Origin: Ostreococcus lucimarinus
Lineage: Eukaryota
Assembly (NCBI GenBank): GCA_000092065.1
Contig: CP000592.1
Strand: one strand, 5' to 3'
DNA length: 64,000 nt
A program made the position numbers and the translations under genes. Positions 2,041 to 56,803 of this stretch are shown here, one piece after another. The notes below the pieces were generated by a model. It was not told the DNA's origin, searched no databases, and was given only the letters and a program-made list of their open reading frames with translations. Numbering within the stretch: the stretch's first letter is position 1; each line of letters opens with the position of its first letter.

Positions 2041-4218
2041 ATGTCGGACTCGGTCGCGCCCGGTAAGGATGACGACGACGCCGATGGGTTCTACGAGGAA
2101 GCGCCGCGCGAAGGCGGCGTCGGCGACGTCGCGCGCGAGGAAAACGGCGAGCGAAACCGCGCGTGGCCCGGTGTTGACGTGCAACAGCTCTCGCAAGCCT
2201 TCGCGCGCGTCGCGGGGTCGTTCGGGCGAGACACGATGGGCGTGCGTAGCCCGCAGTTCAGCGAGGAAGCGCACGAGGCGGCGTACGCGGCGGCGCGGGC
2301 GGATTATCAGGACGAACGGTTCGAGGCTGACCTGGCGCGCGCGATAAGCGCGTCGCTTGGGGACGAACAGCGCGACGCGCGGACGTCCACCGGCAGCGCG
2401 AACGAGAAAGGCGGGGATGAAGAGGCAGCCTTATTGCTCGAGGCGCGGCGACAGAGCTTGCGAGAGCGTTTCAGTGGGAGCGCGATGGCGGAACGGTTTT
2501 GGTCGACGTACTCGCTCAACTTTAGCGAGCGATTGGCCGACGGCTTTTTCTACCCGCATCCGAGCGATTGGGGGACGTTGAACGCCAAGGGGGGGAGATT
2601 ACCGAAATTCGAGTCGTTGCGCGCGGTGGAGGATTACCAGGGAGATCGCGAGGTGGTCATCGTTGATCGATGCGGCGACGTCTCGTTGGAAGAGTTTATG
2701 GCGTATTGTTTTGACGAAATTGGCCACATCGAGGATAGGTGTGACGCATCGCCTGAGCTCGCACGCCTCGTCGCCGAGCGCATGGGGGGCGCCGCGGAAA
2801 GCGACGACGCGCTGCGAGAGACCTGGGAAAGCGAGCGAGCGCGTTTGATCGAGGAACACGGTAGCTTGATTTTTCCAGTGGGATCAATGAAAGTGGGTTT
2901 GCAACGACATCGCGCCATTTTGTTCAAAGCCGTGGCAGACTTCCTTGAAATTCCTTCGCAGCTGTTGCGTGGGAAATTTTATTGCGGAGACGAGGAGGCG
3001 GTGATGATCATTGTGATGTGCGGTGGTATGAAGCGAATGCTTAATTTGATGCATGAGCCGGGTCGTATGCAGACTCCGTACAACTCAGATTCGACGCCGC
3101 CATCGAACGCTGGATCGACGTACGCGCCTACCGACAGCGGTCGAGAGTCACCAGACGTATTGGTGACACCATCTCGAGCGGAGGATACTAGAGAAGGCCA
3201 ACGTTTCGGCGTGATGTCTCCGGAAGACTTGCAAACGCCAGAGCAACCGAAGACTCCTTTGCGCCTCCAAGTCGCGGTCGATCTCACCATTGATCCGTCA
3301 CAAATTTTACTCGGAGAGCGCATCGGGATAGGTTCTTTCGGCGAAGTTCACCGAGCACTCTGGCGCGGTACAGAGGTTGCGGTGAAGAGATTTCTCGACC
3401 AGGATATTTCAAAAAATCTCCTCGACGACGTGACGTTTGAGGTAGACATCATGCGACGTCTGCGACATCCGAACGTCATCTTACTCATGGGCGCGGTCAC
3501 AGTACCTGGAAACCTATCCATCGTTACCGAGTTTTTGCACCGTGGATCACTTTTCAAACTTTTACATCGCGAACAAAGTCCAGCGCTGAAAGCGGCATTG
3601 GACAACCGTCGCAGGATGAGGATGGTCATGGATGTCATTCGCGGCATGCACTACTTGCACTCGTTTGAGCCGATGATAGTGCATCGCGACTTGAAGTCTC
3701 CAAACCTTCTCGTCGATAAGAGTTTTGTCGTGAAAGTGTGTGACTTTGGTTTATCGAGAATGAAGCGTAACACGTATCTCAGCTCAAAGACAAATGCGGG
3801 CACGCCGGAGTGGATGGCGCCCGAGGTGCTACGAAATGATGACAGCGACGAAAAGGCGGACATCTATTCGTTTGGGGTAATTTTATGGGAACTTGCCACG
3901 ATGCAAGAGCCTTGGTCAGGCTTGAATCCGATGCAAGTTGTCGGAGCGGTCGGTTTTGCGGGTAAGCAGCTCGAGATTCCAGCGGATATGGACGAAGTCA
4001 TCGCGAAGATGTGCCGCGATTGTTGGAAGACCAATCCTCGTGAGCGCCCGAGCTTTGAAGATTTGGCGACAGAAATGCGATCTGTACCCAAAGCTCCTAG
4101 TTTAGCGCAGAGCGATTCGAACGGAGCTATTAAGGAGCGAAGTCGACTCTCCGTGCCTCCGGTGCCGGTGTCCGAGCCACGGGGCGACTGGGAAGACGAG
4201 CGGTCGCGTGGTTGGTAA
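2041..4218 (+). CDS. Raf-like MAPKKK Ser/Thr kinase with an N-terminal EDR1/CTR1-type domain.
   Basis: EDR1 domain: FWSTYSLNFSERLADGFFYPHPSDWG...RHRAILFKAVADFLEIPSQLLRGKFYCG. Kinase motifs: GIGSFGEVHRALWRGTEVAVKRF, HRDLKSPNLLVD, DFGLSR, TPEWMAPE. First in-frame ATG is at 2041. The upstream part of ORF 1951 is R-rich and GTG-initiated. Confidence 0.85.
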   Translation: MSDSVAPGKDDDDADGFYEEAPREGGVGDVAREENGERNRAWPGVDVQQLSQAFARVAGSFGRDTMGVRSPQFSEEAHEAAYAAARADYQDERFEADLARAISASLGDEQRDARTSTGSANEKGGDEEAALLLEARRQSLRERFSGSAMAERFWSTYSLNFSERLADGFFYPHPSDWGTLNAKGGRLPKFESLRAVEDYQGDREVVIVDRCGDVSLEEFMAYCFDEIGHIEDRCDASPELARLVAERMGGAAESDDALRETWESERARLIEEHGSLIFPVGSMKVGLQRHRAILFKAVADFLEIPSQLLRGKFYCGDEEAVMIIVMCGGMKRMLNLMHEPGRMQTPYNSDSTPPSNAGSTYAPTDSGRESPDVLVTPSRAEDTREGQRFGVMSPEDLQTPEQPKTPLRLQVAVDLTIDPSQILLGERIGIGSFGEVHRALWRGTEVAVKRFLDQDISKNLLDDVTFEVDIMRRLRHPNVILLMGAVTVPGNLSIVTEFLHRGSLFKLLHREQSPALKAALDNRRRMRMVMDVIRGMHYLHSFEPMIVHRDLKSPNLLVDKSFVVKVCDFGLSRMKRNTYLSSKTNAGTPEWMAPEVLRNDDSDEKADIYSFGVILWELATMQEPWSGLNPMQVVGAVGFAGKQLEIPADMDEVIAKMCRDCWKTNPRERPSFEDLATEMRSVPKAPSLAQSDSNGAIKERSRLSVPPVPVSEPRGDWEDERSRGW

Positions 4219-13575: not shown

Positions 13576-13650
13576 TTGTACCAGCTCGTATCAGCTCGTA
13601 TCAGCTCGTATCAGCTCGTATCAGCTCGTATCAGCTCGTATCAGCTGGTC
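13576..13650. repeat. Tandem 10-nt minisatellite (TCAGCTCGTA) with about 7 copies, in the GGPPS/purD bidirectional promoter.
   Basis: Five perfect copies at 13591..13640 plus flanking variant copies. Confidence 0.9.
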
Positions 13651-16117: not shown

Positions 16118-17890
16118 CTAAAATTCTTCCATCTTTCGCACCGTTCTGTCGCGTTTCGCGCGTGCCTCGATGAATTCGGCGCGCGCGCGCGCGAGCGCGG
16201 AATTGACGCTGTTCAAACCGTTGAATTGACGGGCGCCGCGCGGCGAATCGGCCACCATGAAGGGACTGTTCGGCGCCGTCGCCGAACGCCGGCGAATGAC
16301 GACGAATTCTTCGCCATCCGATTCTTCGTCCGAGACTTCGTGAACGTGCAGTTTTTTCGTGCTCGTCGACGCGCCGTTCGCGCGCGCGAAGCGCGAGGAG
16401 ACCCTGGGCGGCGTGCGCGCGACGTGCTCGAGCATCGCGTGTTCGCGAACGCTGTTGCGTCTCGCGTCTTGCTCGAGCAACGCGTTGATCTCGCCCGTGA
16501 GCTCGTTCGAGCGTTTTTCAGTCTCTTGAAGCCTGACGCGCGCGTCCTTTTCGCGCGCGTACGCTCGATCCAACTCGCGTCGCAGCGCGTTTCTCTCTTC
16601 CTCCAGCGCCCCGAGGCGCGAGTCGAGCGACTCGATGTACGCCTCGGCTTCCGCCTGCTTGGCTCGCATCTCCTGCAAGCTGCGCTGATGCGCCTCGGAC
16701 GCGCTCGCCATGGCGTTGCTCACGTGCATGGAGGCTTGCGCCGACGCCGCGTCCATGGCGTCAATCTCTTGGAGCAAACCTTCGACGCGCGCTTCGCTCG
16801 CCGCGAGCTGTTCCTCGAGCTTGTCTTTGAGCTGACGCTGTTTATCGAGCGTTTCGTTCAAGCGCGCGCCTTCGGACGCGAGGTCCTCCGCGCGACGCTT
16901 CAGCGTCGCGATTTCCGCGTCCTTCTCTCGCGCGGACAGGGAGAGACGACGCGTCTCCTGATCCGCGTCTTCTTGAGATCGCTCGAGTCGTCGCAGCTCG
17001 ACTTCCAGCTTGTTGACCACGACGCTGCGCTCCTCTAAAACCGTCTCCATCTCGGCGCGAAGCTCCGCGGACTCTCGCCGCGACGCGTTCAACTGCTCGC
17101 GCAGCTCGCTTTCGATCGCGTCGCTGCTTTCGGCGAGCGTGTGCATCCGCCTTTGCACCTCGGCCAACGTCTCCTGTAACTCGCGTCGCTCGGCTTCAAT
17201 CTCGCGCATCTCGGCGCCTCGGCTTCGTCCGCTCTTCACGTCCGGCGTCCTGTAGAGCTTTTTACCACCGCTGCTCGGCGACGAGCGCTCGAGCGCCATG
17301 TCTTCGAGCAATCGCTCCACCTCCGCCCGCAGCCGCGCTTCGTACGCCTCGACGTCATCCGACGACGGCGGTCGCGCCCTCGCGTACGCCAACTTTGTCT
17401 CGTAATCCGCGCACGCCGCGACGTGCGCGTCCAAAACCGCCGTCAGCAAATCCCCCACGCGCTCCCGCGTCGTCCCATCGCGCTCGATCCAAATCATCGG
17501 ATCGTTCTCCGCCGCGCGCGCGACGTCCGCCTCCACCAATCCGCGCTCGGCGCACGCCGTCGCGAACGCCGTCGCCGCGCGACACACGTCCTCCAGCGCT
17601 CCCTCCGCCGTCGCGCACCGCGCTAACGCTTCCGCCTCGCGCGCCGACGCGCGCTCGCGCTCTTCCGCTGACCGTTCACCGTCCGCGCGCGCCCGCGCGA
17701 GGCGCTCGCCCGCGGCCTCGGCGTCGTCCCTCGCCGCGTCGCGCTCGAGCGCCCTGGCGCGTCGCTCGAGCGCGAGCGCGCGCTCGAGCTCGTCCGCGCG
17801 CGTCGTCGCGCGCGCCCGCGTCGTCGGCGGGTCCGCGGCGACCGTCGCGTCGACGCGGTCGCCGCGACGCCGCGTCGACGGCCATCGCAT
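16118..17890 (-). CDS. Long coiled-coil protein of about 590 aa. The start is uncertain. ORF 16118..18313 extends into the alpha-tubulin first exon on the other strand, so it was trimmed to the in-frame ATG at 17890.
   Basis: Heptad-rich, E/R/L/A composition throughout ([40 protein letters not shown]...). No enzymatic motif. Confidence 0.55.
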
Positions 17891-21520: not shown

Positions 21521-22930
21521 TCACTCGTGCAGCAATTTCAAGTTTAAATTCGGAAATCCGCTCGCGCCCTTGTGCTTTGCGAACAAGCGCGCCACCTCGC
21601 GGTAATACGCCGCGTGAGCGATCTCAACGTCGCTCTCCCTCGCTCGTCCCGCGTCATCGGGCTCGGGAAGCGACATCGGGTCGCCGACGACGAACGTGAG
21701 CGGCACTCGGGCCGGAATCGGGAGAATGCCGAGGTAGCCCACCGCTAAAAGCGGCGTCGCGACGCGAAAGCGTCTGTACAAATATCGACCGGGGTGCCGC
21801 AAGAGATTGCGCCAGCTGCTACTCTCGCCGAAACACACGACGGGCACGAGACGCGCTTTTTCTTCGATGGCGAGTCGAACGAACCCGCGATGTTTCGTGC
21901 AGAGCGTGATGGTCTCCTCCTTCAATCCGCCGACGTGCTCGCACATCTCGCCCTGACCGCCCGGACACACGACGACCGCGCGCTCGTGACGAAGCGTCGA
22001 ACGAAATATTTCTTGCGACACGCTGCGCACGCCCAACCACGCGGCGAGCTCTCGCACGAACGGCGGCTTGAAAAGAACGCTCGCGGCCAACGTCACGGGC
22101 TTGACGTTTTCAAAGCGACGACCAAACTGAGGTAAAAAGTGAAACCACACGGCGCCCGCCGGAATGAGCGAGTGCGGGTGATAGGCAAAGACGAGAGGCG
22201 TCGAGCCCGCGCCGTGCGCGCCGTCGTGAATCATGCGCACGCTCCCGTGCCACGCCTTCGCCGCGCCCTCTATCCATCGCGACGACCACGCTCGAAACGC
22301 GTCCCACTTCCGGCGCCCGCGCTCGAGATCGCGCTGCAAGAAATACGTGCTCGCGTACAGAACAACGATGGACGCCAGCGCTCCCGACGACCCGAGCGCG
22401 TACACCGTCGCCAGCGTCGCGAAAATCACCGCGTGCGGCGCGTGCAACACGTGCGCGATGGACAACAGCGTCGCGACGCGCGCGACGTCTCTAAAATCCA
22501 AACCTTCCCTTCCCCTCGCCGCGCCTCGCCCCGCCTCGCCCTCGTCCTGGACGTCGAAGAACGCCAGCGACGCCGCCACCGCCGCCTCGCTCGCGACGCT
22601 CAGTCCCAGGCTCGTCCAACTCAGCGCCGCCACCGCCAGTCGCCGCTCGCGCGTCCCGTCGTCCCTCGCGTCCCTCGCGTCTCGCCACACCAGCGTCCCG
22701 CACGCCATCACGCACGCCAGCGACGCGCTCGCCAGCGTCCATCCGATCGCTTGCGCCAGCGTGAACCTCCACGATCGTCCTCGCGCGAACGGTTGCCACG
22801 CGCGCCATCCTCGTCCTCCGAACAGCGCGCCACCGACGCCAAAGTTCGTGATCGCCACCGCGAGCAGGCACGCGAGCGCGCCCGCGGACGGCGCGCGCCA
22901 ATCGATCGCCGCGTCCGCGGGCGCGCGCAT
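21521..22930 (-). CDS. DGAT2: DGAT2/MGAT-family acyl-CoA:diacylglycerol acyltransferase with a multi-TM N-terminal extension of about 250 aa.
   Basis: FAYHPHSLIPAGAVW (an HPHG-type motif), FENVKPVTLAASVLFKPPFVRE, RAVVVCPGGQGE, GFVRLAIEEKARLVPVVCFGE. ORF 21521..23380 was trimmed to the ATG at 22930 (MRAPADAAIDW...), upstream of which it overlaps Ulp1. Confidence 0.8.
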   Translation of the reverse strand: MRAPADAAIDWRAPSAGALACLLAVAITNFGVGGALFGGRGWRAWQPFARGRSWRFTLAQAIGWTLASASLACVMACGTLVWRDARDARDDGTRERRLAVAALSWTSLGLSVASEAAVAASLAFFDVQDEGEAGRGAARGREGLDFRDVARVATLLSIAHVLHAPHAVIFATLATVYALGSSGALASIVVLYASTYFLQRDLERGRRKWDAFRAWSSRWIEGAAKAWHGSVRMIHDGAHGAGSTPLVFAYHPHSLIPAGAVWFHFLPQFGRRFENVKPVTLAASVLFKPPFVRELAAWLGVRSVSQEIFRSTLRHERAVVVCPGGQGEMCEHVGGLKEETITLCTKHRGFVRLAIEEKARLVPVVCFGESSSWRNLLRHPGRYLYRRFRVATPLLAVGYLGILPIPARVPLTFVVGDPMSLPEPDDAGRARESDVEIAHAAYYREVARLFAKHKGASGFPNLNLKLLHE

Positions 22931-22961: not shown

Positions 22962-23008
22962 TTCCGATTCCGATTCGATTCCGATTCGATTCGATTCGAT
23001 TCGATTCG
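22962..23008. repeat. (CCGATT/CGATT)n microsatellite of about 9 units, 32 nt upstream of the DGAT2 ATG and 88 nt upstream of the Ulp1 ATG.
   Basis: Sequence ttccgattccgattcgattccgattcgattcgattcgattcgattcg. Confidence 0.9.
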
Positions 23009-23095: not shown

Positions 23096-25681
23096 ATGGC
23101 CGTCGACGAGGACGACGACGAGGACGCGCGCGACGAGGACGGATCGATCGCGAACTCGGACGCGCTCGAGACGCGACGACGGAGGACGCGCGACGACGAC
23201 GACGGGACGACGACGACGAGGACGACGACGACGATGGACGCGCGGATGCGGCGCGCGAGGCGCGAGCACGAGAAAATCGCGCGAACGTACGCGGAGGCGC
23301 ACGAGAACGTGGGGACGAGGGAAAACGGGACGACGCGCGACGCCGACGCGCTGCGAAGGGAACGCGTCAAGACGAGTCATCTGATAGCCAAGGTGAACGA
23401 AACGAAAGTCGGCGCGAACGCGACGCTGGTGAGAAGGAAGGAGTATTTAGACCGGATGATCGCGAACGCGGAGGAACGGGAGGCGTTGATGGAGGACGGC
23501 GGATCGGAGGCGCGAGGCGGAGGCGCGGCGACGACGACGACGCGCCGGGACGCGCCGCAGGAATGGACGACGATGGGGCAGATGGCGGAGAGAAAGTCGC
23601 CGGCGAAGTCGCTGAGGGAGCGCGATGCGAGAGATTTCCAGCCGGAAAAGTATAGATTTGACGACGAAAAGGCGTCGCCGAGCGCGGCGGAGGCTGTCAA
23701 CGGGTTGAGCAGAGCGTTGGACGACATAGACGGAGATTTAGGGTCGATGTCGTCTCTGTCGCCCGATAGATATCCAGGACGAAAAGAAACGGCGAGTTGG
23801 GACACGTTAGCGCGACAACCGACGTCGCACGGCAGTAGACAGTTGGACGCCGCGCTCGGGCGCGCGGGGGCTCCCGAGGCGAAGTCGACGCCGACGACGA
23901 TTTCGACGTACTTTAAGAAGAGCGCGGGTGCGACGCAGCCGACGACGACGACCGCCGCTGTGGACGATTTCGCCGCTGCTGCGACCGACAAGAGTCGCGA
24001 GCGTCTGCCGATGTCGCCGCCGCCGCCCAAGCGTCGAGCGAAGTCGACGCGCGGCGACCCGGCGTCTCCCATGGTGGTGGATCTTCTGGAGACGAGCGAC
24101 GAGGAGAACCCGTTGGAGAACGAGTCAAGAGGGGTGCAAAGCTTGGATCCAGTGAGTCTTACGAGCGAGAATGGTGAAATTCGCCGATCGACGCGCTCGA
24201 GTAGGTATCGCTCGCTGCAGAACACCGTCGGCAACTTGGCGACGGATTACCCAGACTCGAAGACGAAGGGGTCGGTGCAAATCACTCTCGGCGACTTGGA
24301 GCACCTCAGAGACGGCGAGATGCTGAACGATCAGTGCGTGGACTTTTATTTGAAGTACATTCAAGTGGAAATGTTGGGCGCGAACGCGTTTGAGATATTA
24401 GACAAGGTGCACATTTTTAACAGCTTTTTCTATCAAAAGCTCGCGCAAAAGCACGATAGAGATCGAAGCAACGTCGACGCCGCGACGGCATCGCACGCAC
24501 GCGTGAAGAATTGGACCAAGGGTGTGGATATCTTTACGAAAAGCTTTCTCATGATTCCCGTGCACAGCAATTTGCATTGGTCTTTAGTCATCGTTTGCTA
24601 TCCAAACGGTACTGATGAGCGCCAACCGATGATGCTCCATCTCGACAGCATGACGCAACATGGCGGGCACAACTCAGAAGTCGTGTCGAAGACGGTCCGG
24701 CGTTACCTGAGCAAAGAATGGAAAACGCAAAAGGGCGACGACACTGAATCAAAATTCGACGCTCGATACATGCCAACGTATCGCGTCAATGTTCCGAGAC
24801 AAAACAATGGTTGCGACTGCGGCGTTTTCATTTTGGCCTTTCTCGAAAAGTTTTTAACCGAACAACCCGAGATTTTGAAGAAGAGCGATGTTCAACGCGC
24901 GGCGCAAAAGCGCTCGTTTGGAATGGACGATGCGGGCAAGTTTCTACGAAAGAACTGGTTTCCCAACGAGTTCGTGGACGAATTGCGCGCCAAGTTGAGT
25001 CTCCTCGTCATCCAGCGCATTCAGGCTTCGCTCGCGGAAAACGACGCGTCAAAGCTCATTCTCAACGCGGCAAATGAAGAGCAAATGAAAGACTATGAGC
25101 ATCGGCAGTGGCGAACGAAACAAGCGGTTTCAAAGGCTGAGCGTGACCGTAAGAAGAGAATGGAAGCCATGGAAGCGGAGCGAAGACGCAAGCTCGAGCC
25201 GCAAGACCTCTCTGACGACGACGACGCCAAAACCAAAGCCTCCGACGCCAAGGATGTAGACTTTGAGATTTCTCGCGAAGTCAGGGTGAAGAAACAGCCG
25301 ACGAAGACTAGGCAGACGCAGATATTCTCGGGATCCCACTGGAACAAGGCGAGAGAGAAAGAACCCGTGCGCGAGGAGACTCGCGACGAGAAGCCATTCG
25401 AACCCTTCGCGGGCCCGTCGTACAAAATCGGGCGACACACGCGCGCGCGTGCGCCTTCTCCGAGCGCTGATTGGACGAGCGGAACGACCCGTCCCAAGTA
25501 TGGTAACGCCAACCTTTTGAAACGAGCGGAACGATCGCGAGCGAAGCAAAACGGGGAAGAGGAACGGAGCGCCGCCGACGACGAATCCCCGGGCCAGGCC
25601 AAGGCGAAGCTCAACGACGCGAATGAAAAACTTTCCGAGAGAATCAAGGGGATGACGTCTCGAGTGTTCTCGACGAAATAG
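23096..25681 (+). CDS. SUMO-specific protease (Ulp1/SENP, peptidase C48) with a long acidic/basic disordered N-terminus.
   Basis: C-terminal catalytic domain: VDIFTKSFLMIPVHSNLHWSLVIVCYP...LHLDSM...QNNGCDCGVFILAFLEKF (the His/Asp/Cys triad context). ORF 22139 was trimmed to the first ATG not overlapping DGAT2. Confidence 0.8.
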   Translation: MAVDEDDDEDARDEDGSIANSDALETRRRRTRDDDDGTTTTRTTTTMDARMRRARREHEKIARTYAEAHENVGTRENGTTRDADALRRERVKTSHLIAKVNETKVGANATLVRRKEYLDRMIANAEEREALMEDGGSEARGGGAATTTTRRDAPQEWTTMGQMAERKSPAKSLRERDARDFQPEKYRFDDEKASPSAAEAVNGLSRALDDIDGDLGSMSSLSPDRYPGRKETASWDTLARQPTSHGSRQLDAALGRAGAPEAKSTPTTISTYFKKSAGATQPTTTTAAVDDFAAAATDKSRERLPMSPPPPKRRAKSTRGDPASPMVVDLLETSDEENPLENESRGVQSLDPVSLTSENGEIRRSTRSSRYRSLQNTVGNLATDYPDSKTKGSVQITLGDLEHLRDGEMLNDQCVDFYLKYIQVEMLGANAFEILDKVHIFNSFFYQKLAQKHDRDRSNVDAATASHARVKNWTKGVDIFTKSFLMIPVHSNLHWSLVIVCYPNGTDERQPMMLHLDSMTQHGGHNSEVVSKTVRRYLSKEWKTQKGDDTESKFDARYMPTYRVNVPRQNNGCDCGVFILAFLEKFLTEQPEILKKSDVQRAAQKRSFGMDDAGKFLRKNWFPNEFVDELRAKLSLLVIQRIQASLAENDASKLILNAANEEQMKDYEHRQWRTKQAVSKAERDRKKRMEAMEAERRRKLEPQDLSDDDDAKTKASDAKDVDFEISREVRVKKQPTKTRQTQIFSGSHWNKAREKEPVREETRDEKPFEPFAGPSYKIGRHTRARAPSPSADWTSGTTRPKYGNANLLKRAERSRAKQNGEEERSAADDESPGQAKAKLNDANEKLSERIKGMTSRVFSTK

Positions 25682-43466: not shown

Positions 43467-44255
43467 TTAACGCGGAATGATGAAGAGTCTTTCGCTCGGT
43501 TTACGATTCTTCAGCGAGTGAAAGTAATACACGTCTCCTTGTATCGCGCCAAAATCACCTTCAAACGTCGTGTGAAGCTCTGGGACAGTAAGAAGTTCTC
43601 GCAAGGACTCGCTCGAAGTGTCCAACCAAGCCAACAACGCGCAGGAGTCCAGAGATAACCAAAGCACGTTGCGTTGGCTCATGCCTTTTTCGTCCAAACA
43701 CAATGTGGAGTCGCATTGGCATTTTCCTAGATCAATGGGGAAGTTTTCATCGTCCTTCGCCGGATACTCTTTCGCGTGAAACAAGATTCCGAGTCGAACC
43801 ACAGACGACTCGTTCGTCGCCCGCCAAGCAAACGCGTGCGCATGAAACAGATCGAACCGATTTAGCGACGTCGAGGAAGACGATGACGCTGTTTCAAATA
43901 ATTCGACCATGTAAGCGTTGCTCTTGCGATCGCGCATCCGTCGTCCGTATCGTTCTTGCGTCAACTCGCACCCTCGACTCGCCGCGTTCTCGACATTTGG
44001 CACCGCGCGGTGGCGCCAATGCAGCCCATCACCCCATACCCCGGGCGCACGTACCATCGCGCACGGCGCCGGAGGCACACGCACAATCTTTCGCACGCCC
44101 TCGATGTCGTTCGTTCCTCGCGCGAGCGCATCCAACAGCTTTTGCGCGCTCGAGCGCCGTCGCTCTTCGCTCGACCCATCGGCGCGCGCACCGCGGACGC
44201 GCACGACGCGCGCGCGCGGCTTCACCGAAATCCACGTGGATATCGTCATTTGCAT
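43467..44255 (-). CDS. Hypothetical protein of about 263 aa. The upstream part of ORF 43467..44597 is S-rich and overlaps the F-box gene region.
   Basis: C-terminal two-thirds is protein-like (…NAYMVELFETASS…LGILFHAKEYPAKDDENFPIDLGKCQCDSTLCLDEKG…GDVYYFHSLKNRKPSERLFIIPR). Start set at MQMTISTW. Confidence 0.4.
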   Translation of the reverse strand: MQMTISTWISVKPRARVVRVRGARADGSSEERRRSSAQKLLDALARGTNDIEGVRKIVRVPPAPCAMVRAPGVWGDGLHWRHRAVPNVENAASRGCELTQERYGRRMRDRKSNAYMVELFETASSSSSTSLNRFDLFHAHAFAWRATNESSVVRLGILFHAKEYPAKDDENFPIDLGKCQCDSTLCLDEKGMSQRNVLWLSLDSCALLAWLDTSSESLRELLTVPELHTTFEGDFGAIQGDVYYFHSLKNRKPSERLFIIPR

Positions 44256-44263
44256 GGACTTTC

Positions 44264-44293
44264 GCGGCGCGGCGCGGCGCGGCGCGGCGCGGT
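44264..44293. repeat. (CGCGG)6 pentanucleotide repeat, 9 nt upstream of the minus-strand ATG at 44255.
   Basis: Sequence cgcggcgcggcgcggcgcggcgcggcgcgg. Confidence 0.9.
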
Positions 44294-44391: not shown

Positions 44392-45282
44392 ATGGAGACG
44401 AGCGCGACGGACGGCGACGGCGACGATGACGACGACTTGGAGGCCGAAATCACGCGCATGATGCTAGAACGACGCGACGATGACGGCGAGAACGCGAAGA
44501 AGCGACCGAGAGTCAGTCGTGCTGCCGACGAAGGCGCGGTCGAGGAGGCAGAGGCTGGGCCTTTTTCGACGCTGCACGACGACGTCGTGTCGCTCATCCT
44601 GCGCTTCCTCGCACCGAACGAATTAACTTCCCTCGCGCAGACGTGTAAATTTTTCGCTGCGCGCTGCGATCAAGACTTCCTATGGAGGCAGTGCTACTTG
44701 GAGAGGTTCGGGAACACAAAGCAGGCGCAAGGAAACGGGATGAAGAAGCTATATCTTGCGGCGGACGCGATGGAAATCAATAGAGAACGTACAAAAGCGC
44801 CCGCAGGCTTCGAGAAAATATGCGCCGAGGCTTGCGCGGCGAAGCGTTCACGCCAAAATGCAGTCCTCGCACCTTTGTGTGAACAGCTAGCGACGGACCG
44901 CGCCGCGAGCGAATGGAAGTCACATAGACAATTTGCCACCGACGCCGACTCGCACGTGTGCAGTCGCCGCGCTGGTTGTTCATACGCCGAATTACCGAGT
45001 AATGTGTTCGTCTGTGAACGCACGGGTAAGGTGCACGTGTGCGATGACACATGTTCAGAGCGCTACTTGGATACTGAAATCGGTACCGAGATATGCGAGG
45101 TTTCTGGGCGAGTCCTGGACACCGTTGCCGCGGATGACGAAGATGAAGATCCACAAGCTGCTGCAGAGCAAGACCAGCATTACTTCGAAAAAGGTTACTT
45201 CGGTCGTGCTTTCGAAGTTGGTTACGGCTGCGACAATGAAGCAGAACTCGCGACGGCGCTCTGGGGAGGCCGACGCTATTGA
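44392..45282 (+). CDS. F-box protein with a C-terminal Cys/His-rich region.
   Basis: F-box: LHDDVVSLILRFLAPNELTSLAQTCKFFAARCDQDFLWRQCY. C-terminus: HVCSRRAGCSYAEL...CERTGKVHVCDDTCSERY. Start chosen as METSATDGD. ORF 43918 upstream overlaps the minus-strand gene. Confidence 0.65.
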   Translation: METSATDGDGDDDDDLEAEITRMMLERRDDDGENAKKRPRVSRAADEGAVEEAEAGPFSTLHDDVVSLILRFLAPNELTSLAQTCKFFAARCDQDFLWRQCYLERFGNTKQAQGNGMKKLYLAADAMEINRERTKAPAGFEKICAEACAAKRSRQNAVLAPLCEQLATDRAASEWKSHRQFATDADSHVCSRRAGCSYAELPSNVFVCERTGKVHVCDDTCSERYLDTEIGTEICEVSGRVLDTVAADDEDEDPQAAAEQDQHYFEKGYFGRAFEVGYGCDNEAELATALWGGRRY

Positions 45283-46460: not shown

Positions 46461-47505
46461 CTATCGTTCGACTAATTTTGTTATCGTCTCAACTACTTCG
46501 TTGAGTGTGTGCGACACGCTTATTACGTTTGCATTCCAGACAGAGACGGGATCGTCGTGAGACGGCGACACGTTGTCAAAGTACACAAAACGATCAACTT
46601 GGTCTATGTATCCTTGCACACGCTGATCGTAGATCAACTTCGCCGCCAACTTCTCTGCCTCAGCATCACTCACACCCAAAATTTCCCCAAGATGATCGAA
46701 ACTTATGTTCTCGTATGCATACTTCATGCTCTCTAAATTGTGTTCCATAATAGCCTGCTCAAACGCAGACACGCCGTCGGCGCGAACTTCGACATGATGC
46801 GGACTTAGGAAGGTCTGGAATTCTTTCGCTTCATCTGCTCTGATGATGCGTCTGAATTCAATCTTCTCAAGAAACGGGTAAACGGGTAATTCTCTCACGT
46901 TCGTATCTAGCCGAAACGAACGAAGCAAACGATCTCTCTGAACAGAGGAGGAAAGAATCGCACACACAACTGCGCGCGTCATCGTTCCTGCGTCGCTTTG
47001 ATTTTCTAGTCGAGACATTTCGGTATAGCGCAACGCAGCATCCATAAACTTGCCCACTCTATCAGAAACTTTTGCCCAGCACGCATGGTATTCATGCAGC
47101 AGCTCGGGCTTTTTTTGAAGCTCAGCCGGCAGCTGCGAGAGCAACGCGTGCGTCTTGTTTACGTGCTTCTCTGCCTTGTCCAATTCATTCGCTTCCAAGT
47201 ACATGTTCGCGGTTTCAAGCGTTATCTTGAGCTTGTACTCACCCGAACCCGCACTTGAGGGTTGCACTTCGATTCCCGCCAGCACGTCAGCGGCCTCGGA
47301 CCAATTCTTTGCCTCAGCTAACCGTCTCGCCAACGCCTCACGCACCGGCCACACACTCTCCTCAAACGATACCAGTCGCGGTTGCGTCTTCGCCAACACC
47401 GCCGCCGCCAATCTCTTATGCGTCGTCGCATCTAAATTTATGAAAGTTTTCGACACTTGTGCTATGATCTCTCGCGATATCGCCAGCGGTACGCTATCCG
47501 AAACG
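46461..47505 (-). CDS. CSN4: COP9 signalosome subunit 4 (CSN4, PCI domain), exon 2.
   Basis: RLVSFEESVWPVREALARRLAEAKNWSEAADVLAGIEVQ and AIMEHNLESMKYAYENISFDHLGEILGV align with CSN4. Confidence 0.8.
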
Positions 47506-47651
47506 ACTACTCGTCGAAGAATCAATCGATTGGTTACGCGCCGTCGTCAGTCTCCGGTCTCCGTTCGCGTCCCGTCCCGTCGCGTCCCGTCGCGTCGCAT
47601 CGCGTCGCGTCGCGTCGCGTCATCGCGTCGTCGCGTCGTTATCGCACGCAC

Positions 47652-47820
47652 TGTGATCCATGAACGCCTCGAATCCGTCCTCGACGTCCATCGAGGTCGA
47701 CGTCGTCTCGACCGATGCCATCACCTCTCGCGCCAACGCTTCGTACGCCCTTTGACGCGCCGCGGAATCGTGTTCGAGCGTGATGGCGCGCAGGCGATCA
47801 TCGAGCGACATCGACGTCAT
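47652..47820 (-). CDS. CSN4: CSN4 exon 1 (MTSMSLDDRLRAITLEHDSAARQRAYEALAREVMASVETTSTSMDVEDGFEAFMDH plus A). The 146-nt intron 47506..47651 has a GTGCGT donor, a GAGACTGAC branch and a TAG acceptor.
   Basis: The join A|TC gives I, then VSDSVPLAISREII, restoring the CSN4 pattern (...EAMVNENVSLVISRQLL). The intron contains a (CGCGTC)n repeat. Confidence 0.65.
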
Positions 47821-47868: not shown

Positions 47869-47925
47869 GTTCGATTCGATTCGATTCGATTCCGGTTCGG
47901 TTCGGTTCGGTTCGGTTCGGTCTGT
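47869..47925. repeat. Compound pentanucleotide microsatellite (CGATT) with about 5 units followed by (CGGTT) with about 6 units, 50-105 nt upstream of the CSN4 ATG.
   Basis: Sequence gttcgattcgattcgattcgattccggttcggttcggttcggttcggttcggtc. Confidence 0.9.
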
Positions 47926-48214
47926 CGGTCCGACGCCGCGGCGTTCCCAGAGCGCGACGGGCGACGGGCGACGGGCGAGCGCGCGAGCGAGGCGCGCGAG
48001 CGAGTCAAACGCGCGTCTCGCGCGTCGCGCCCGTCGCGCGTCGAACGCGATGCCGCGCGCGCGGTCGTCGCGCGTCGAACGCGCGACGCGGTCGTTTAAA
48101 GATGACGAGCCGCGGGGACGTCGAGAGGGATCGGAGGCGAACGAGCGCGGCGACGAGACGCGCGAGGGCGAGAAACGACGATGGAGTCGAAGATTTCAAA
48201 GCGCGTCGCGCGCG

Positions 48215-50578
48215 ATGGTGATGGTAATCGCCCTGACGTGCGCGCTCGAGACGCCGAGAGGAGCGCGCGCGGGGAACGCGTTCGCCAGGCAAACGCCGGT
48301 CGGGGACTTGGGATTCCTCGGCGTGCCGGGACCGCCGGGAAGAAGCGGACACAAGGCGGTGGTGACGGATGATTCGCAAATGTTCATCTTCGGCGGACGC
48401 GCGAAGTCGACGAACGGGGATTTTTTGAACGACTTTTGGATGTACGACTGGGAGACGGGCTCGTGGGTGGCGTACACGCCAAACGAATTGTTGTGCGATC
48501 AGTGTTCAACGTGTCAGGACACGGGAGCAACGTGTTACGATTGGACGGGATTGCGACCTTATAGCGAGCCGACGCTGAAGGAAGGGAAAAATAGGAAGGA
48601 GCGTTCGATACCGAGCGGGCGAATCCATCACGGGATGGCGCTCACGCTCAACCGCGAGACTGGGATTCGGGATACCATCATCATGTATGGAGGCGAGAGC
48701 ATCGATTGCACTGATTACTGCGACGATGTTTGGCACTACAATATTCCGAACAATCTATGGAGCAAAAGATCCTTCACCGGACAGGAACAGCGACCCGTGA
48801 GACGATGGAAGCACGCCATGACGGATTACTACGACGCTGTCTTCTTATTTGGAGGACACTCGCAAAGATTACTCTCGACGACTGCGAATGCGGCGAACCA
48901 GACCAACGATACATCGTTTTATTACGACACTGATGTCGTTTATGACGGCACTAGGCCGTTATTCATGGAAGATCTTTGGGTTTACAACGCTACGAATCGC
49001 CAGTGGGAGTACCTCGAGCCTTCATGCACGACGTGTTCTAGTACCACGACAGAGAGTGACGGTACGGCGGACCGAGATTTATACGGCCCTCGTGGCCGAA
49101 CTGGTGCAAGCCTGGTGAGCTATGAAGACTCTTTGTACCTTTTTGGCGGCTACTCCTATGGAGGTGAATCAAACTTCAAAGAGCTGTATCCCGTACCCAA
49201 GAATGAAACGATCCGTCAGTTGCTGTACCCATCGCTGGAGAGTAAGTATTTTCTTAACGACCTTTGGCGGTACGACATTTTGACAAACTCTTGGACTGAG
49301 TTAATGCCGAGAACAAATTACACTGCGAAACCTGAGCGGAGGCACGGACATTCTGCCACAGTTGTGTTGAAAGATTCTGTCGCGGTGATGCTCATTCAGG
49401 GAGGTCGCACGTGGGAAGACGAAATCGGAGATATGTGGCAGTATAACATTTCATCCAACGTGTGGACTGAGATCGTTCCAGAAGGTGATTATCCCTCACG
49501 ACGAGAAGGATCGACAATGGTCTCTGTTGGTCAGACTTCGACATTTAGATCTGGTTCATCACGTCAGGCTGGTCGCGCGTTGATATTCGGAGGTCATGGT
49601 TGTCTGAAAGGCAAGACATATGCTGAAGCTGTGGCCGCTGCAGCCGCTGCAAGTACGGGTACGGTCGGTAGAACATATGTGGACGATCTTTCTGGGGTGA
49701 CTGTGGACTGGCAAAGCAAGTATAGTGTAACTACGACGGGTAAGCTTGTGATAAACGGCGTGACGATGGAAGACGCCAGCGATCCTACATTTTTGGCTGT
49801 TGAAGATGGAACAACACAAGTGCAAACAGTCACGAGCTATGGTGAGACGGTTTGTACTGAAGAACTCAGTGATCTTTGGCAGTATCTTCCAGATGAATGC
49901 CCGAACGATTGCAGTCGATCTGGTACGTGTAGCTTCAACACGTGCATGTGCTCAAAAGGGTATTACGGCAACGATTGCTCGTTGCCAGAGTGTCCTCAGT
50001 CAAATTGCACATTTGATAGCGTTGGACGTAAAATGGTGTGTAATCACTGCAGTGGCCGAGGTGAGTGTAGTAACGGTGTGTGCGTGAACTGCGCTTACCC
50101 GTCGAGTGGCACCTATTGCGAAATTAAAGTTGGTTTGTGTACGACATGCGAGTGTTACGAAGACAACGGTGAAGAACCCCCGGAGGGCTTGGACTGTGGT
50201 TTGGTGTTGGTTTGCCCGAAGAATCCTTCTGTTCCAAGTTCTGCAGAGTGCTCGGGCAACGGTATTTGTGTAGAAGGCGTGTGTAACTGCTATCCTGGGT
50301 TCACTGAAAGCATGGTGGTTACTCGAGTCGGCGACGCTCGATTTCCTGCCAATCTCGACGTGAATGGCACAGTTGTTCCCGCCCCAGAATGCGGTTATGA
50401 TGAGACGGCGCCCAACAAGTACAACAAAGCTCTAGTGACAGATGCGTGTATACCGACGTACATCAAAGATTGTGGTGACTTTCTGTACGAGATGGCGGGT
50501 TCAAGAAGGACTGCTGGACTCGGCGTCGCCGCACTCATAGCGATACTGACGTTTCAAGCATTGGTCGACCTCGGGTAA
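48215..50578 (+). CDS. Type I membrane protein with a signal peptide, Kelch-repeat beta-propeller and EGF/tenascin-like Cys-rich repeats (attractin/MEGF-like).
   Basis: Signal peptide MVMVIALTCALETPRGARA. Kelch-type repeats (GHKAVVTDDSQMFIFGG, HHGMALT...IIMYGG, RWKHAMTD...VFLFGG, HGHSATVV). Cys-rich repeats CSRSGTCSFNTCMCSKGYYGNDC.. and CSGNGICVEGVCNCYPGF. C-terminal TM: AGLGVAALIAILTFQALV. Confidence 0.75.
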   Translation: MVMVIALTCALETPRGARAGNAFARQTPVGDLGFLGVPGPPGRSGHKAVVTDDSQMFIFGGRAKSTNGDFLNDFWMYDWETGSWVAYTPNELLCDQCSTCQDTGATCYDWTGLRPYSEPTLKEGKNRKERSIPSGRIHHGMALTLNRETGIRDTIIMYGGESIDCTDYCDDVWHYNIPNNLWSKRSFTGQEQRPVRRWKHAMTDYYDAVFLFGGHSQRLLSTTANAANQTNDTSFYYDTDVVYDGTRPLFMEDLWVYNATNRQWEYLEPSCTTCSSTTTESDGTADRDLYGPRGRTGASLVSYEDSLYLFGGYSYGGESNFKELYPVPKNETIRQLLYPSLESKYFLNDLWRYDILTNSWTELMPRTNYTAKPERRHGHSATVVLKDSVAVMLIQGGRTWEDEIGDMWQYNISSNVWTEIVPEGDYPSRREGSTMVSVGQTSTFRSGSSRQAGRALIFGGHGCLKGKTYAEAVAAAAAASTGTVGRTYVDDLSGVTVDWQSKYSVTTTGKLVINGVTMEDASDPTFLAVEDGTTQVQTVTSYGETVCTEELSDLWQYLPDECPNDCSRSGTCSFNTCMCSKGYYGNDCSLPECPQSNCTFDSVGRKMVCNHCSGRGECSNGVCVNCAYPSSGTYCEIKVGLCTTCECYEDNGEEPPEGLDCGLVLVCPKNPSVPSSAECSGNGICVEGVCNCYPGFTESMVVTRVGDARFPANLDVNGTVVPAPECGYDETAPNKYNKALVTDACIPTYIKDCGDFLYEMAGSRRTAGLGVAALIAILTFQALVDLG

Positions 50579-55015: not shown

Positions 55016-55405
55016 TCACTTCGACGCTTCCTCCGGCGTCAGCGTCACCATTTCGTTCACCGCGTGCACTTGGTCTTGCAGTTCCATCCAAATGCACTTG
55101 TACACCATGCGTTGTCTATTCACCGAACTCTTCCCCTCGAACGCCTTGGACACGACTTTGATCGACACGTGTCGCGCGTTCCCGCTCTCGTCTCGCACGT
55201 CCACCGCGTCAGCCTCTAAGCCTTCCGCGATTTTCCCTCGCATCTGTTCCACGAGCGCGCTCGTGATGTTATTGCCCTCCCCCCCGCTCGCGAACGTTCG
55301 CGTCGCGCGCGCGGTCGCTCGCGCGGTCCGCGCGCACGCACCGCGCGCGCGCGCCGCGTGATTCACCCCCGCCGTCACCGCCGGTCGCACCAGCGCTCGC
55401 CACAT
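55016..55405 (-). CDS. BOLA: BolA-like protein with an N-terminal presequence.
   Basis: ITSALVEQMRGKIAEGLEADAVDVRDESGNARHVSIKVVSKAFEGKSSVNRQRMVYKCIWMELQDQVHAVNEMVTLTPEE is the BolA fold signature (H-x-x-V...HA). ORF 55016..56041 was trimmed to MWRALVRP because its upstream part runs through a tandem repeat and overlaps the hydrolase gene. Confidence 0.75.
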   Translation of the reverse strand: MWRALVRPAVTAGVNHAARARGACARTARATARATRTFASGGEGNNITSALVEQMRGKIAEGLEADAVDVRDESGNARHVSIKVVSKAFEGKSSVNRQRMVYKCIWMELQDQVHAVNEMVTLTPEEASK

Positions 55406-55508: not shown

Positions 55509-55650
55509 TCGAACAATCGAACAGTCGAAAAGTCGAACAATCGAACAGTCGAAACATCGAAAAGTCGAACAATCGAAAAGTCGAAACATCGAACAGTCGA
55601 AAAGTCGAACAATCGAAAAGTCGAAACATCGAACAGTCGAAAAGTCGAAC
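55509..55650. repeat. Tandem 8-nt repeat (TCGAANNN) of about 18 units with a 24/48-nt higher-order period. It lies 100-245 nt upstream of the BolA ATG and about 107 nt upstream of the hydrolase ATG.
   Basis: Sequence tcgaacaatcgaacagtcgaaaagtcgaacaatcgaacagtcgaaacatcgaaaag... All six frames stay open across it, so the long ORFs in the track through this region are artefacts. Confidence 0.9.
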
Positions 55651-55756
55651 CGGCGTGCCCGGGCCCGGGTGCGGGTGCGGCCGTCGCGGACGACGACGAC
55701 CCACTTTGCGACGACGGTCGCGGTGCAGACGGCGTCGCGGCGTCGGGAACCCGACG

Positions 55757-56803
55757 ATGATGCTTCGTCGCGCGGCGACGACGTCGCGCGGCGCGGCGCG
55801 GCGCGAGCGCGCGTCCGCGGGACGACGACGTCGCGCGCGCGCGATGCCGACGCGGAGGCGAACGCGCGCGACCGCGGAGGCGTCGACGAGCGATGAGGAG
55901 GTGAAATATCACACGTGGCGAGGCCATCGCGTGGGGTATCGCGCGAGCGGCGATGAAGGGCGGGCGATCGTCCTCATTCACGGGTTCGGGGTGTCGAGCT
56001 TTCAGTTTAGAGATAACGTGCGCGCGCTCGGCGAACGCCATCGAGTGTACGCGTTGGATTTAGTGGGATTCGGAACGAGTGATCAACCAGACGTACCGTA
56101 CGCGATGGAATTTTGGAGAGATCAAGTGATCGACTTCGTGGAAAACGTCGTGGGCGAGCCGGCGGTGCTGGTGGGGAACAGCATCGGCTCGCTCGCGGCG
56201 GTGCACGTGGCGGCCGAGTCGCCGAAGACGACGGCGGGCATCGCCCTCATCAACTGCGCGGGGGGGATGAATAACAAAGTCAAACGCTTAGATGGAGATT
56301 TTGATGGATATGGGTGGCAATACAAGGCCGTGGTACCCATTTTCAGCGTCGTGTTGGCCATCATAGACGCGGTGTTGAAGGTGGAGCCGATCGCGAAACC
56401 GCTCTTTGAAAGCGTGAGAGGCGAAGAAAATGTGCGCGGCGCGCTCGCAAATGTGTACATGAATCCCAGTCGCGTCGATGACGGGTTGGTGAACTCTATT
56501 TGCGGCGCGGCGAACAGAGAAGGCGCGTTCAAGGCGTTCGTGAACATCTTAACGGGTCCCGCCGGGCCGCGTCCCGAGGAACTCATGCCTCGCGTCGCGT
56601 GTCCGATGCTCATCTTGTGGGGAAGCAAAGACACCATCACCCCGCTCGATTTCCCGCTCGGTCAATACTTTCTCAACCTTCCGAAAACACGACAGACGTC
56701 GCGAACGGACTTCATACAGTTTGAAGGCGAAGGACACTGCGTGCAAGACGACAATCCAAAACTCGTCAACGACGCGTTGACCGATTGGGTCGCCGCGCTT
56801 TAG
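55757..56803 (+). CDS. Alpha/beta-hydrolase fold protein (pheophytinase/chlorophyll-dephytylase-like) with an R/T/A-rich presequence.
   Basis: IVLIHGFGVSSFQFRDNV (HG oxyanion motif), GNSIGS (the GxSxG nucleophile elbow), and a C-terminal EGEGHCVQDD His. Confidence 0.75.
   Translation: MMLRRAATTSRGAARRERASAGRRRRARAMPTRRRTRATAEASTSDEEVKYHTWRGHRVGYRASGDEGRAIVLIHGFGVSSFQFRDNVRALGERHRVYALDLVGFGTSDQPDVPYAMEFWRDQVIDFVENVVGEPAVLVGNSIGSLAAVHVAAESPKTTAGIALINCAGGMNNKVKRLDGDFDGYGWQYKAVVPIFSVVLAIIDAVLKVEPIAKPLFESVRGEENVRGALANVYMNPSRVDDGLVNSICGAANREGAFKAFVNILTGPAGPRPEELMPRVACPMLILWGSKDTITPLDFPLGQYFLNLPKTRQTSRTDFIQFEGEGHCVQDDNPKLVNDALTDWVAAL

Follow-up and report, generated by a model that had tools for sequence, protein, structure and literature searches.

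Gene map and tandem arrays

The sequence analyzed here is a single 64-kb stretch of DNA, hereafter the window, in which four pairs of divergently transcribed genes are separated by short spacers carrying tandem arrays. The window is nuclear DNA of Ostreococcus lucimarinus CCE9901, as established by the 100% identity of its 469 aa DGAT2 product and by the correspondence of its Kelch/EGF-domain product to XP_001420629.1. Its GC content is 58.5%, with a CpG observed/expected ratio of 1.65. A map of 40 genes, assembled from open reading frames, third-position GC and Pfam matches, assigns approximately 86% of the window to coding sequence and defines 39 gene junctions (15 divergent, 15 convergent and 9 tandem), these counts resting on a map that includes a few uncertain small open reading frames. 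Gene orientation on this same map alternates beyond random expectation, with only 9 of the 39 junctions being tandem (binomial P = 0.001 against an expectation of 50% tandem).

The 8.6 kb of non-coding bases in this one 64-kb sample are distributed among divergent (55%), convergent (27%) and tandem (17.5%) spacers, some of the large 'spacers' possibly concealing unrecognized exons. Divergent (5') spacers average 69% GC and are rich in the words CGCGC, CGCGA, CGACG and GATCG, against 45% GC in convergent (3') spacers. A search of the spacers with Rfam returned no non-coding RNA match at the gathering threshold. ARAGORN predicted a 97-nt tRNA-Arg(TCG) on the minus strand at 48024-48120, overlapping the start of the Kelch/EGF-domain gene; Rfam gave no tRNA match on that strand and interval even at E-values up to 1, and the prediction most likely reflects CG-rich simple sequence and not a genuine tRNA.

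A sequence-only reading of the window had proposed that four arrays of short tandem repeats lie in bidirectional promoters. All four (R1 to R4) were recovered at the positions given in Table 1, each within a divergent spacer. They sit in promoter or 5' UTR sequence: 7-97 nt separate them from the minus-strand ATG and 87-128 nt from the plus-strand one, an overall range of 7-128 nt, and each fills 22-42% of its own spacer, the spacers being 136-351 nt long. The proposed ranges for these distances accommodate most of the values, with two of them, 7 and 87 nt, falling just under the respective lower bounds of 10 and 90 nt.

Table 1. Tandem arrays in divergent spacers of the window and the genes flanking R1 to R4.
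Feature	Position	Strand	Description	nt to minus-strand ATG	nt to plus-strand ATG	Context or support
SEQ2 array	13578-13646		(GTATCAGCTC)6.9 minisatellite, near-perfect			Polyprenyl-synthase/GARS divergent spacer; TRF score 131 vs at most 48 in shuffles
DGAT2 (PF03982)	21521-22930	minus	469 aa			100% identity to NCBI O. lucimarinus CCE9901 'predicted protein'
R1	22962-23008		(CCGATT)3/(CGATT)5 plus partial unit; 45% GC; 8.4 copies, 92% matches (TRF)	31 (DGAT2)	87 (Ulp1)	165-nt DGAT2/Ulp1 divergent spacer
Ulp1/SENP-type protease (Peptidase_C48)	23096-25681	plus				Exact protein on 139 contigs; Pfam
Hypothetical gene	43467-44255	minus	262 aa; NCBI form 156 aa, start 43937			Metagenome gene calls (262 aa form)
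R3	44263-44292		Perfect (CGCGG)6; 100% GC; 6 copies, 100% matches (TRF)	7 (hypothetical gene)	99 (F-box)	Hypothetical gene/F-box divergent spacer
F-box gene	44392-45282	plus	ATG 44392 chosen in this analysis			Pfam F-box-like
CSN4 (PCI domain)	46461-47820	minus	Probable intron; first-exon ATG 47811 or 47820			Pfam
R2	47869-47921		(CGATT)4 then (CGGTT)5-6, compound microsatellite; 53% GC; 10.4 copies, 91% matches (TRF)	48 (CSN4)	128 (Kelch-EGF)	CSN4/Kelch-EGF divergent spacer
Heptamer array	47954-47978		(GCGACGG)3.6			Same spacer as R2
Kelch/EGF-domain gene	48050-50578	plus				Exact match to XP_001420629.1; Pfam
BolA	55016-55405	minus				Exact protein on 154 contigs; Pfam BolA
R4	55509-55652		(TCGAANNN)18 minisatellite; 40% GC; 18 units of 8 nt	97 (BolA)	106 (hydrolase)	42% of the 351-nt BolA/hydrolase divergent spacer
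alpha/beta-hydrolase	55757-56803	plus	348 aa			Exact protein on 236 contigs; Pfam

The TRF score of R4 is 213, whereas none of its 50 shuffles scored above 51; TRF also reports it at periods of 16, 24 and 40, with 86% matches at period 24. The start codons from which the distances were measured match proteins in public collections for six of the eight flanking genes. The exceptions are the F-box gene, whose protein starting at 44392 is absent as an exact sequence from the protein collection, and the first exon of CSN4, whose start is based on a metagenome gene call on contig L020. Public start-codon annotation is inconsistent for the hypothetical gene and for the alpha/beta-hydrolase, the latter being recorded at NCBI in a 'partial' form of 280 aa as against 348 aa. 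Prokaryote-style gene callers frequently run open reading frames through the arrays.

An objective array filter, with minima of 90% matches, 3.5 copies and 20 nt, added two arrays in divergent spacers that the sequence-only reading had not listed: a minisatellite between the polyprenyl-synthase and GARS genes, with a motif unrelated to those of R1 to R4, and a heptamer array sharing the spacer of R2 (Table 1). Non-triplet arrays are found also in non-coding DNA other than spacers: a (TCGCG)14.6 tract at 47565-47638 lies between two open reading frame segments of CSN4, probably within the predicted intron of that gene.

Array placement and spacer composition

The position of the arrays just upstream of start codons had been regarded as non-random. 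A 5' bias is indeed strong in the window: TRF repeats cover 32.7% of divergent spacers, against 5.0% of convergent and 7.3% of tandem spacers, and within coding sequences they cover 26.7% of the first 150 nt against 3.8% of the remainder. This bias affects all simple sequence, and shuffles largely reproduce it. Dinucleotide-shuffled spacers show coverages of 7.7% (divergent), 0.5% (convergent) and 1.1% (tandem), so that the excess of observed coverage over composition is alike, 4-9 fold, in all spacer classes, with the proviso that this control is partly circular, as the shuffled spacers contain the bases of the arrays themselves. The 5' repeat bias stems largely from the CpG-rich, low-complexity promoter composition of O. 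lucimarinus. The repeats in the first 150 nt of coding sequences are mostly low-complexity N-termini of the (GAC)n/(CGA)n type.

Non-triplet arrays are unable to persist in coding sequence, and only 8.6 kb of the window is therefore open to them. Under this constraint, the probability that four out of four arrays fall in divergent spacers is P = 0.09. Extending the count to the six clean non-triplet arrays with units of at least 5 nt, which occupy five spacers, all of them divergent, yields P = 0.05. The spacers are also so short that any element placed in them falls 10-250 nt from an ATG. With small spacers shared by two genes in a window that is about 86% coding, array position carries little information. 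The proposal of non-random placement is supported for tandem repeats in the window as a whole; for the four arrays, the placement is near the expectation from geometry (P ~0.09). Overall, the four arrays are confirmed as a sequence observation, and their regulatory interpretation is supported in part only.

The sharp contrast between 5' spacers, which are CpG-rich and full of repeats, and 3' spacers, which are AT-rich and poor in them, could aid gene-start annotation in the Mamiellales.

Orthologous spacers, length variation and origin of the arrays

The orthologous spacers available for comparison came from metagenome-recovered picoalgal genomes and one NCBI assembly. Gene order around DGAT2 and Ulp1 is identical in contigs L003, L006 and L007-9, at protein identities of 48-60%, and R1 is not present in the DGAT2/Ulp1 spacer of any of these contigs. 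Gene order across the region spanning R2 to R4 is fully conserved in L042 (GCA_014466335.1) and L044, in which the Kelch protein retains 63-66% identity, and neither of the two carries R2, R3 or R4 in the corresponding spacers. The BolA/hydrolase spacer of L042 contains just three dispersed TCGAA words. The sequence-only reading had named absence from orthologous promoters as an outcome that would count against it; as regards conservation this is what was found, with none of the four arrays at the orthologous promoters examined in five syntenic relatives. A conserved cis-element was therefore ruled out, and the fast turnover of the arrays, which are missing in relatives and partly variable within the species, indicates likewise that they are not conserved cis-elements.

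L042 and L044 also differ from the window in base composition, with approximately 50% GC and CpG ratios of approximately 1.3, and in 22 kb each they contain one and zero arrays, respectively, when filtered with TRF at a score of at least 40, at least 85% matches and at least 3 copies. Simple-sequence load thus appears to follow GC and CpG richness among these picoalgae. The window itself yields 222 TRF rows at a looser score of 30, a threshold unequal to that behind the counts for the two relatives.

Within O. lucimarinus, array length was compared in environmental contigs chosen by exact protein identity, whose assemblies give consensus sequences in which rare alleles are under-sampled. R2 and R3 are invariant (8-13 assemblies), and R1 and R4 vary. 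The R2 sequence is identical in 8 environmental contigs, to which 5 further contigs can be added on the basis of equal spacer length alone. R3 is unchanged in 8 of 9 contigs; the ninth, L028, changes to another locus within the repeat, a switch that reflects either a misassembly or a rearrangement. R1 is likewise unchanged in 8 of 9 contigs, with L018 carrying one additional CCGATT unit. The largest difference concerns R4, which has 10 units in L019 as against 18 in the window, together with small indels, and several more variants of the spacer near R4 were obtained from environmental open reading frame calls that read through upstream of BolA. R4, and to a lesser extent R1, could accordingly serve as polymorphic markers for O. 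lucimarinus genotypes in metagenomes. Four Logan contigs (L001, L002, L004 and L005) match the window sequence, probably because they derive from its own strain, and are uninformative on polymorphism. This pattern of variation is usual for micro- and minisatellites, and it fits neutral and functional variation alike.

Two observations concern the contigs themselves. Positions 1-250 of L004 and L005 are chimeric, a different gene being fused there to the low-complexity beginning of the Ulp1 coding sequence. At approximately 1960-1990, L028 joins the R3 repeat, read as (CCGCG)n, to sequence upstream of an RPA (REPA_OB) gene, a junction that could mean that another promoter in the genome also carries a (CCGCG)n array.

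Short-read assemblies are prone to break or turn chimeric at simple sequence, as in L028, L004 and L005, and arrays of this kind might in principle be collapsed or chimeric low-complexity sequence, that is, artefacts of assembly or of the window. The same arrays recur, with the same flanks, across numerous independent metagenome assemblies that stem from different samples and projects, which rules out an assembly artefact and leaves a probability close to nil for this explanation as a whole.

The arrays display the defining features of micro- and minisatellites, namely tandem structure, copy-number polymorphism and turnover, and the compound and degenerate units of R2, passing from CGATT to CGGTT, are typical of microsatellite decay. 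The features expected of a binding-site module, promoter enrichment and orthologous conservation, are not displayed. We consider it probable, at roughly 70%, that the arrays are micro- and minisatellites specific to the lineage, ordinary products of slippage that genome compaction has confined to CpG-rich bidirectional promoters. They would have originated through replication slippage and unequal exchange in short, CpG-rich, low-complexity 5' spacers, and would be neutral or nearly so. Their closeness to ATGs would be mainly a matter of geometry and composition, in a window that is about 86% coding and bars non-triplet units from its coding sequences, with divergent spacers supplying over half of the non-coding bases and the simple-sequence-rich portion of the genome. 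Should they influence expression, by way of spacing, 5' UTR length or local AT content, this would be an incidental, tunable by-product, comparable to what is known from tandem repeats in the promoters of yeast, plants and vertebrates. If this reading is correct, microsatellites can survive only in promoters in a genome with almost no spare DNA, and proximity to a start codon is then no evidence of function.

The length alleles admit a different interpretation, in which the arrays are selected 'tuning knobs' whose unit number shifts promoter spacing, nucleosome occupancy or 5' UTR length and thereby generates heritable expression variation. Natural alleles exist at R1 (one added unit) and at R4 (10 versus 18 units, with further variants in the adjacent spacer), and R1 and R4 form AT-rich islands in GC-rich promoters. 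Moreover, an array that occupies 22-42% of its spacer must shift promoter elements whenever its length changes. There is also precedent, yeast promoter repeats having reportedly been found to modify expression by Vinces and colleagues in 2009. Expression-modifying promoter repeats and expression-associated short tandem repeats are known in humans as well (PMC4857002, PMC3566118). Neutral satellites are, however, equally polymorphic, R2 and R3 are constant in 8-13 assemblies and R1 in 8 of 9, and not even the presence of a repeat is conserved at these promoters in relatives. We therefore regard selected tuning as unlikely.

The arrays resemble promoter and 5' UTR tandem repeats described in other eukaryotes. 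Tandem-repeat density is high in the 5' UTRs of land plants and in the 200 nt upstream of their genes (PMC3887541). Human promoters also show a high density of tandem repeats, with promoter microsatellites among them (PMC3566118), and polymorphic promoter repeats modify expression in humans (PMC4857002). The similarities lie in short head-to-tail units clustered right before start codons, in length polymorphism within the species together with quick turnover between species, and in the presence of some arrays that are more AT-rich than their host promoter. In contrast, the spacers of O. lucimarinus are only 136-351 nt long, serve two divergent genes and belong to a sequence of which about 86% is coding; the repeat units are pentamers and octamers that contain CpG, in place of poly(A/T) or dinucleotides; and, unlike the expression-modifying promoter repeats, the O. 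lucimarinus arrays are known here from sequence alone. Our literature search gave no earlier account of these arrays, and none of microsatellites in Ostreococcus promoters.

A second parallel is offered by the simple-sequence contingency loci of bacteria, where phase variation results from repeats located in a promoter or within coding sequence. Here too the repeats are non-triplet and lie near a start codon, where a change in length could alter expression. The O. lucimarinus arrays differ in being eukaryotic and nuclear, in lying outside coding sequence and in following no -10/-35 spacing logic; most of their alleles are fixed in the sample, and they have no link to surface or virulence genes.

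Motif content of the arrays

Three of the four arrays had been described as sharing a TCGA/GATTC core. R1 and R4 do contain TCGA, as does the CGATT half of R2, but GATTC is restricted to R1 and R2. A 7-mer, AATCGAA, is common to R1, R2 and 5 of the 18 units of R4, in the last case on the opposite strand of the window. R3 and the CGGTT half of R2 have nothing in common with the other arrays. A composition-matched random unit contains TCGA with a probability of 0.04 (pentamer) or 0.085 (octamer), and GATTC with a probability of 0.014-0.018. The occurrence of TCGA in three of the six clean arrays, two of them with a CGATT unit, is thus unexpected from composition, in a test that is post hoc. The CGATT unit itself recurs at two independent loci within 64 kb, exceeding the expectation from composition (P ~0.02-0.04 per array). 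R1 and R4, at 40-45% GC, are far more AT-rich than their host spacers of 69% GC, and slippage of local simple sequence alone does not predict this AT-richness.

Two further candidates were tried and rejected. Hairpin-prone units were considered as a cause of the TCGA core, an idea with partial support that does not hold as a general explanation. The G-rich strand of R3 forms a hairpin of -19 kcal/mol (z = -2.4 against shuffles) and the plus strand of R4 also folds better than its shuffles (z = -3.4), but R1 does not, neither of its strands folding better than shuffled sequence (z = +1.2 to +1.4). A telobox-like element was suggested by CCCTA/TAGGG, which is 11-fold more frequent in divergent spacers (5 versus 6 counts), but AACCCTA occurs only once, as expected by chance. 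The telobox-like ACCCTAG is present in the BolA/hydrolase spacers of L042 (approximately 17270-17330) and L044 (approximately 17400-17420), and absent from that of O. lucimarinus.

A common binding site had been offered as one explanation for the recurrent motif. With the arrays excluded, divergent spacers and coding sequence have the same GATTC/GAATC density, 2.34 per kb, and TCGAA densities of 3.97 and 3.68 per kb, respectively; AATCGAA is found at 12 other sites in the window, 9 of them within coding sequence. The motifs are accordingly not enriched in promoters outside the arrays, and the eight flanking genes are functionally unrelated, both of which speak against a common site.

A more specific version of this idea would make the CGATT/TCGAA arrays multimerized sites for one transcription factor, a candidate being a GARP or MYB-related protein, acting as lineage-specific enhancers or silencers for both divergent genes. 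The recurrence of the motif in R1 and R2, the AATCGAA shared with R4 and the low probability of TCGA and GATTC in random units given above are all consistent with such a factor. The binding site of LUX is GATWCG. That of ROC75, a GARP factor of the chlorophyte Chlamydomonas, has the ChIP consensus GATTYKV (PMC7299327). A (CGATT)n array reads GATTCGA every 5 nt, and R1 and the CGATT half of R2 match GATWCG/GATTYKV, a consensus that is both short and degenerate; no match is seen in R3, in the CGGTT half of R2 or in 13 of the 18 units of R4. A (CGATT)n array resembles GARP-family sites (LUX, ROC75) in carrying GATTCGA in every unit, a resemblance that is no more than a lead. Known GARP-family sites, on the other hand, are solitary or few in number and show conservation at clock-regulated promoters, whereas in O. 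lucimarinus the motif is confined to a species-specific tandem array, with no enrichment elsewhere. Single GATTC, TCGAA and AATCGAA words show no enrichment in the 13 other divergent spacers, no array is present at the orthologous promoters of any related species examined, and the flanking genes (lipid synthesis, SUMO protease, signalosome, BolA and hydrolase) are without evident co-regulation. We consider the action of one factor on these arrays improbable, and retain lineage-specific satellites as the preferred reading.

Metagenomes were scanned with TTCGATTCGATTCGATTCGATTC, which identified at least 120 (CGATT)n loci in very diverse organisms; none of the matches listed came from the loci of the window. 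Sixteen of the matches listed are on Mamiellales-like contigs, a class assigned on composition alone (GC of at least 0.52 and CpG ratio of at least 1.45). In 12 of these 16 contigs, a putative ATG follows the array at a distance of no more than 96 nt, whereas 31% of the intergenic bases of the window are so placed (P = 4e-4), with distances biased downward by the use of the first ATG past the array wherever an open reading frame crosses it. In 11 of 14 arrays, drawn from the matches listed and from R1 and R2, the strand reading AATCG faces the nearest gene (P = 0.057). This proximity to ATGs and the weak strand bias in Mamiellales-like contigs are again compatible with a single factor.

They would also be compatible with a broader proposal, in which (CGATT)n/(AATCG)n constitutes a Mamiellales-specific 5'-proximal element, preferentially with AATCG in the sense orientation and no further than approximately 100 nt from the start codon, functioning either as putative GARP-type sites or as an (AAUCG)n element of the 5' UTR. 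As arrays arise, disappear or change in length, they would rewire or tune the expression of gene pairs served by one bidirectional promoter. We regard this proposal as speculative and very improbable. Should the CGATT unit nonetheless bind a factor or tune expression, it would provide a simple system for the study of promoter evolution in the smallest free-living eukaryotes.

Compound tracts similar to R2 were also observed in the metagenome contigs. In L097 (positions 551-640), (CGATT)n is followed directly by (GGATC)n, and in L053 (positions 3451-3540) it is followed by (CCTTT)n.
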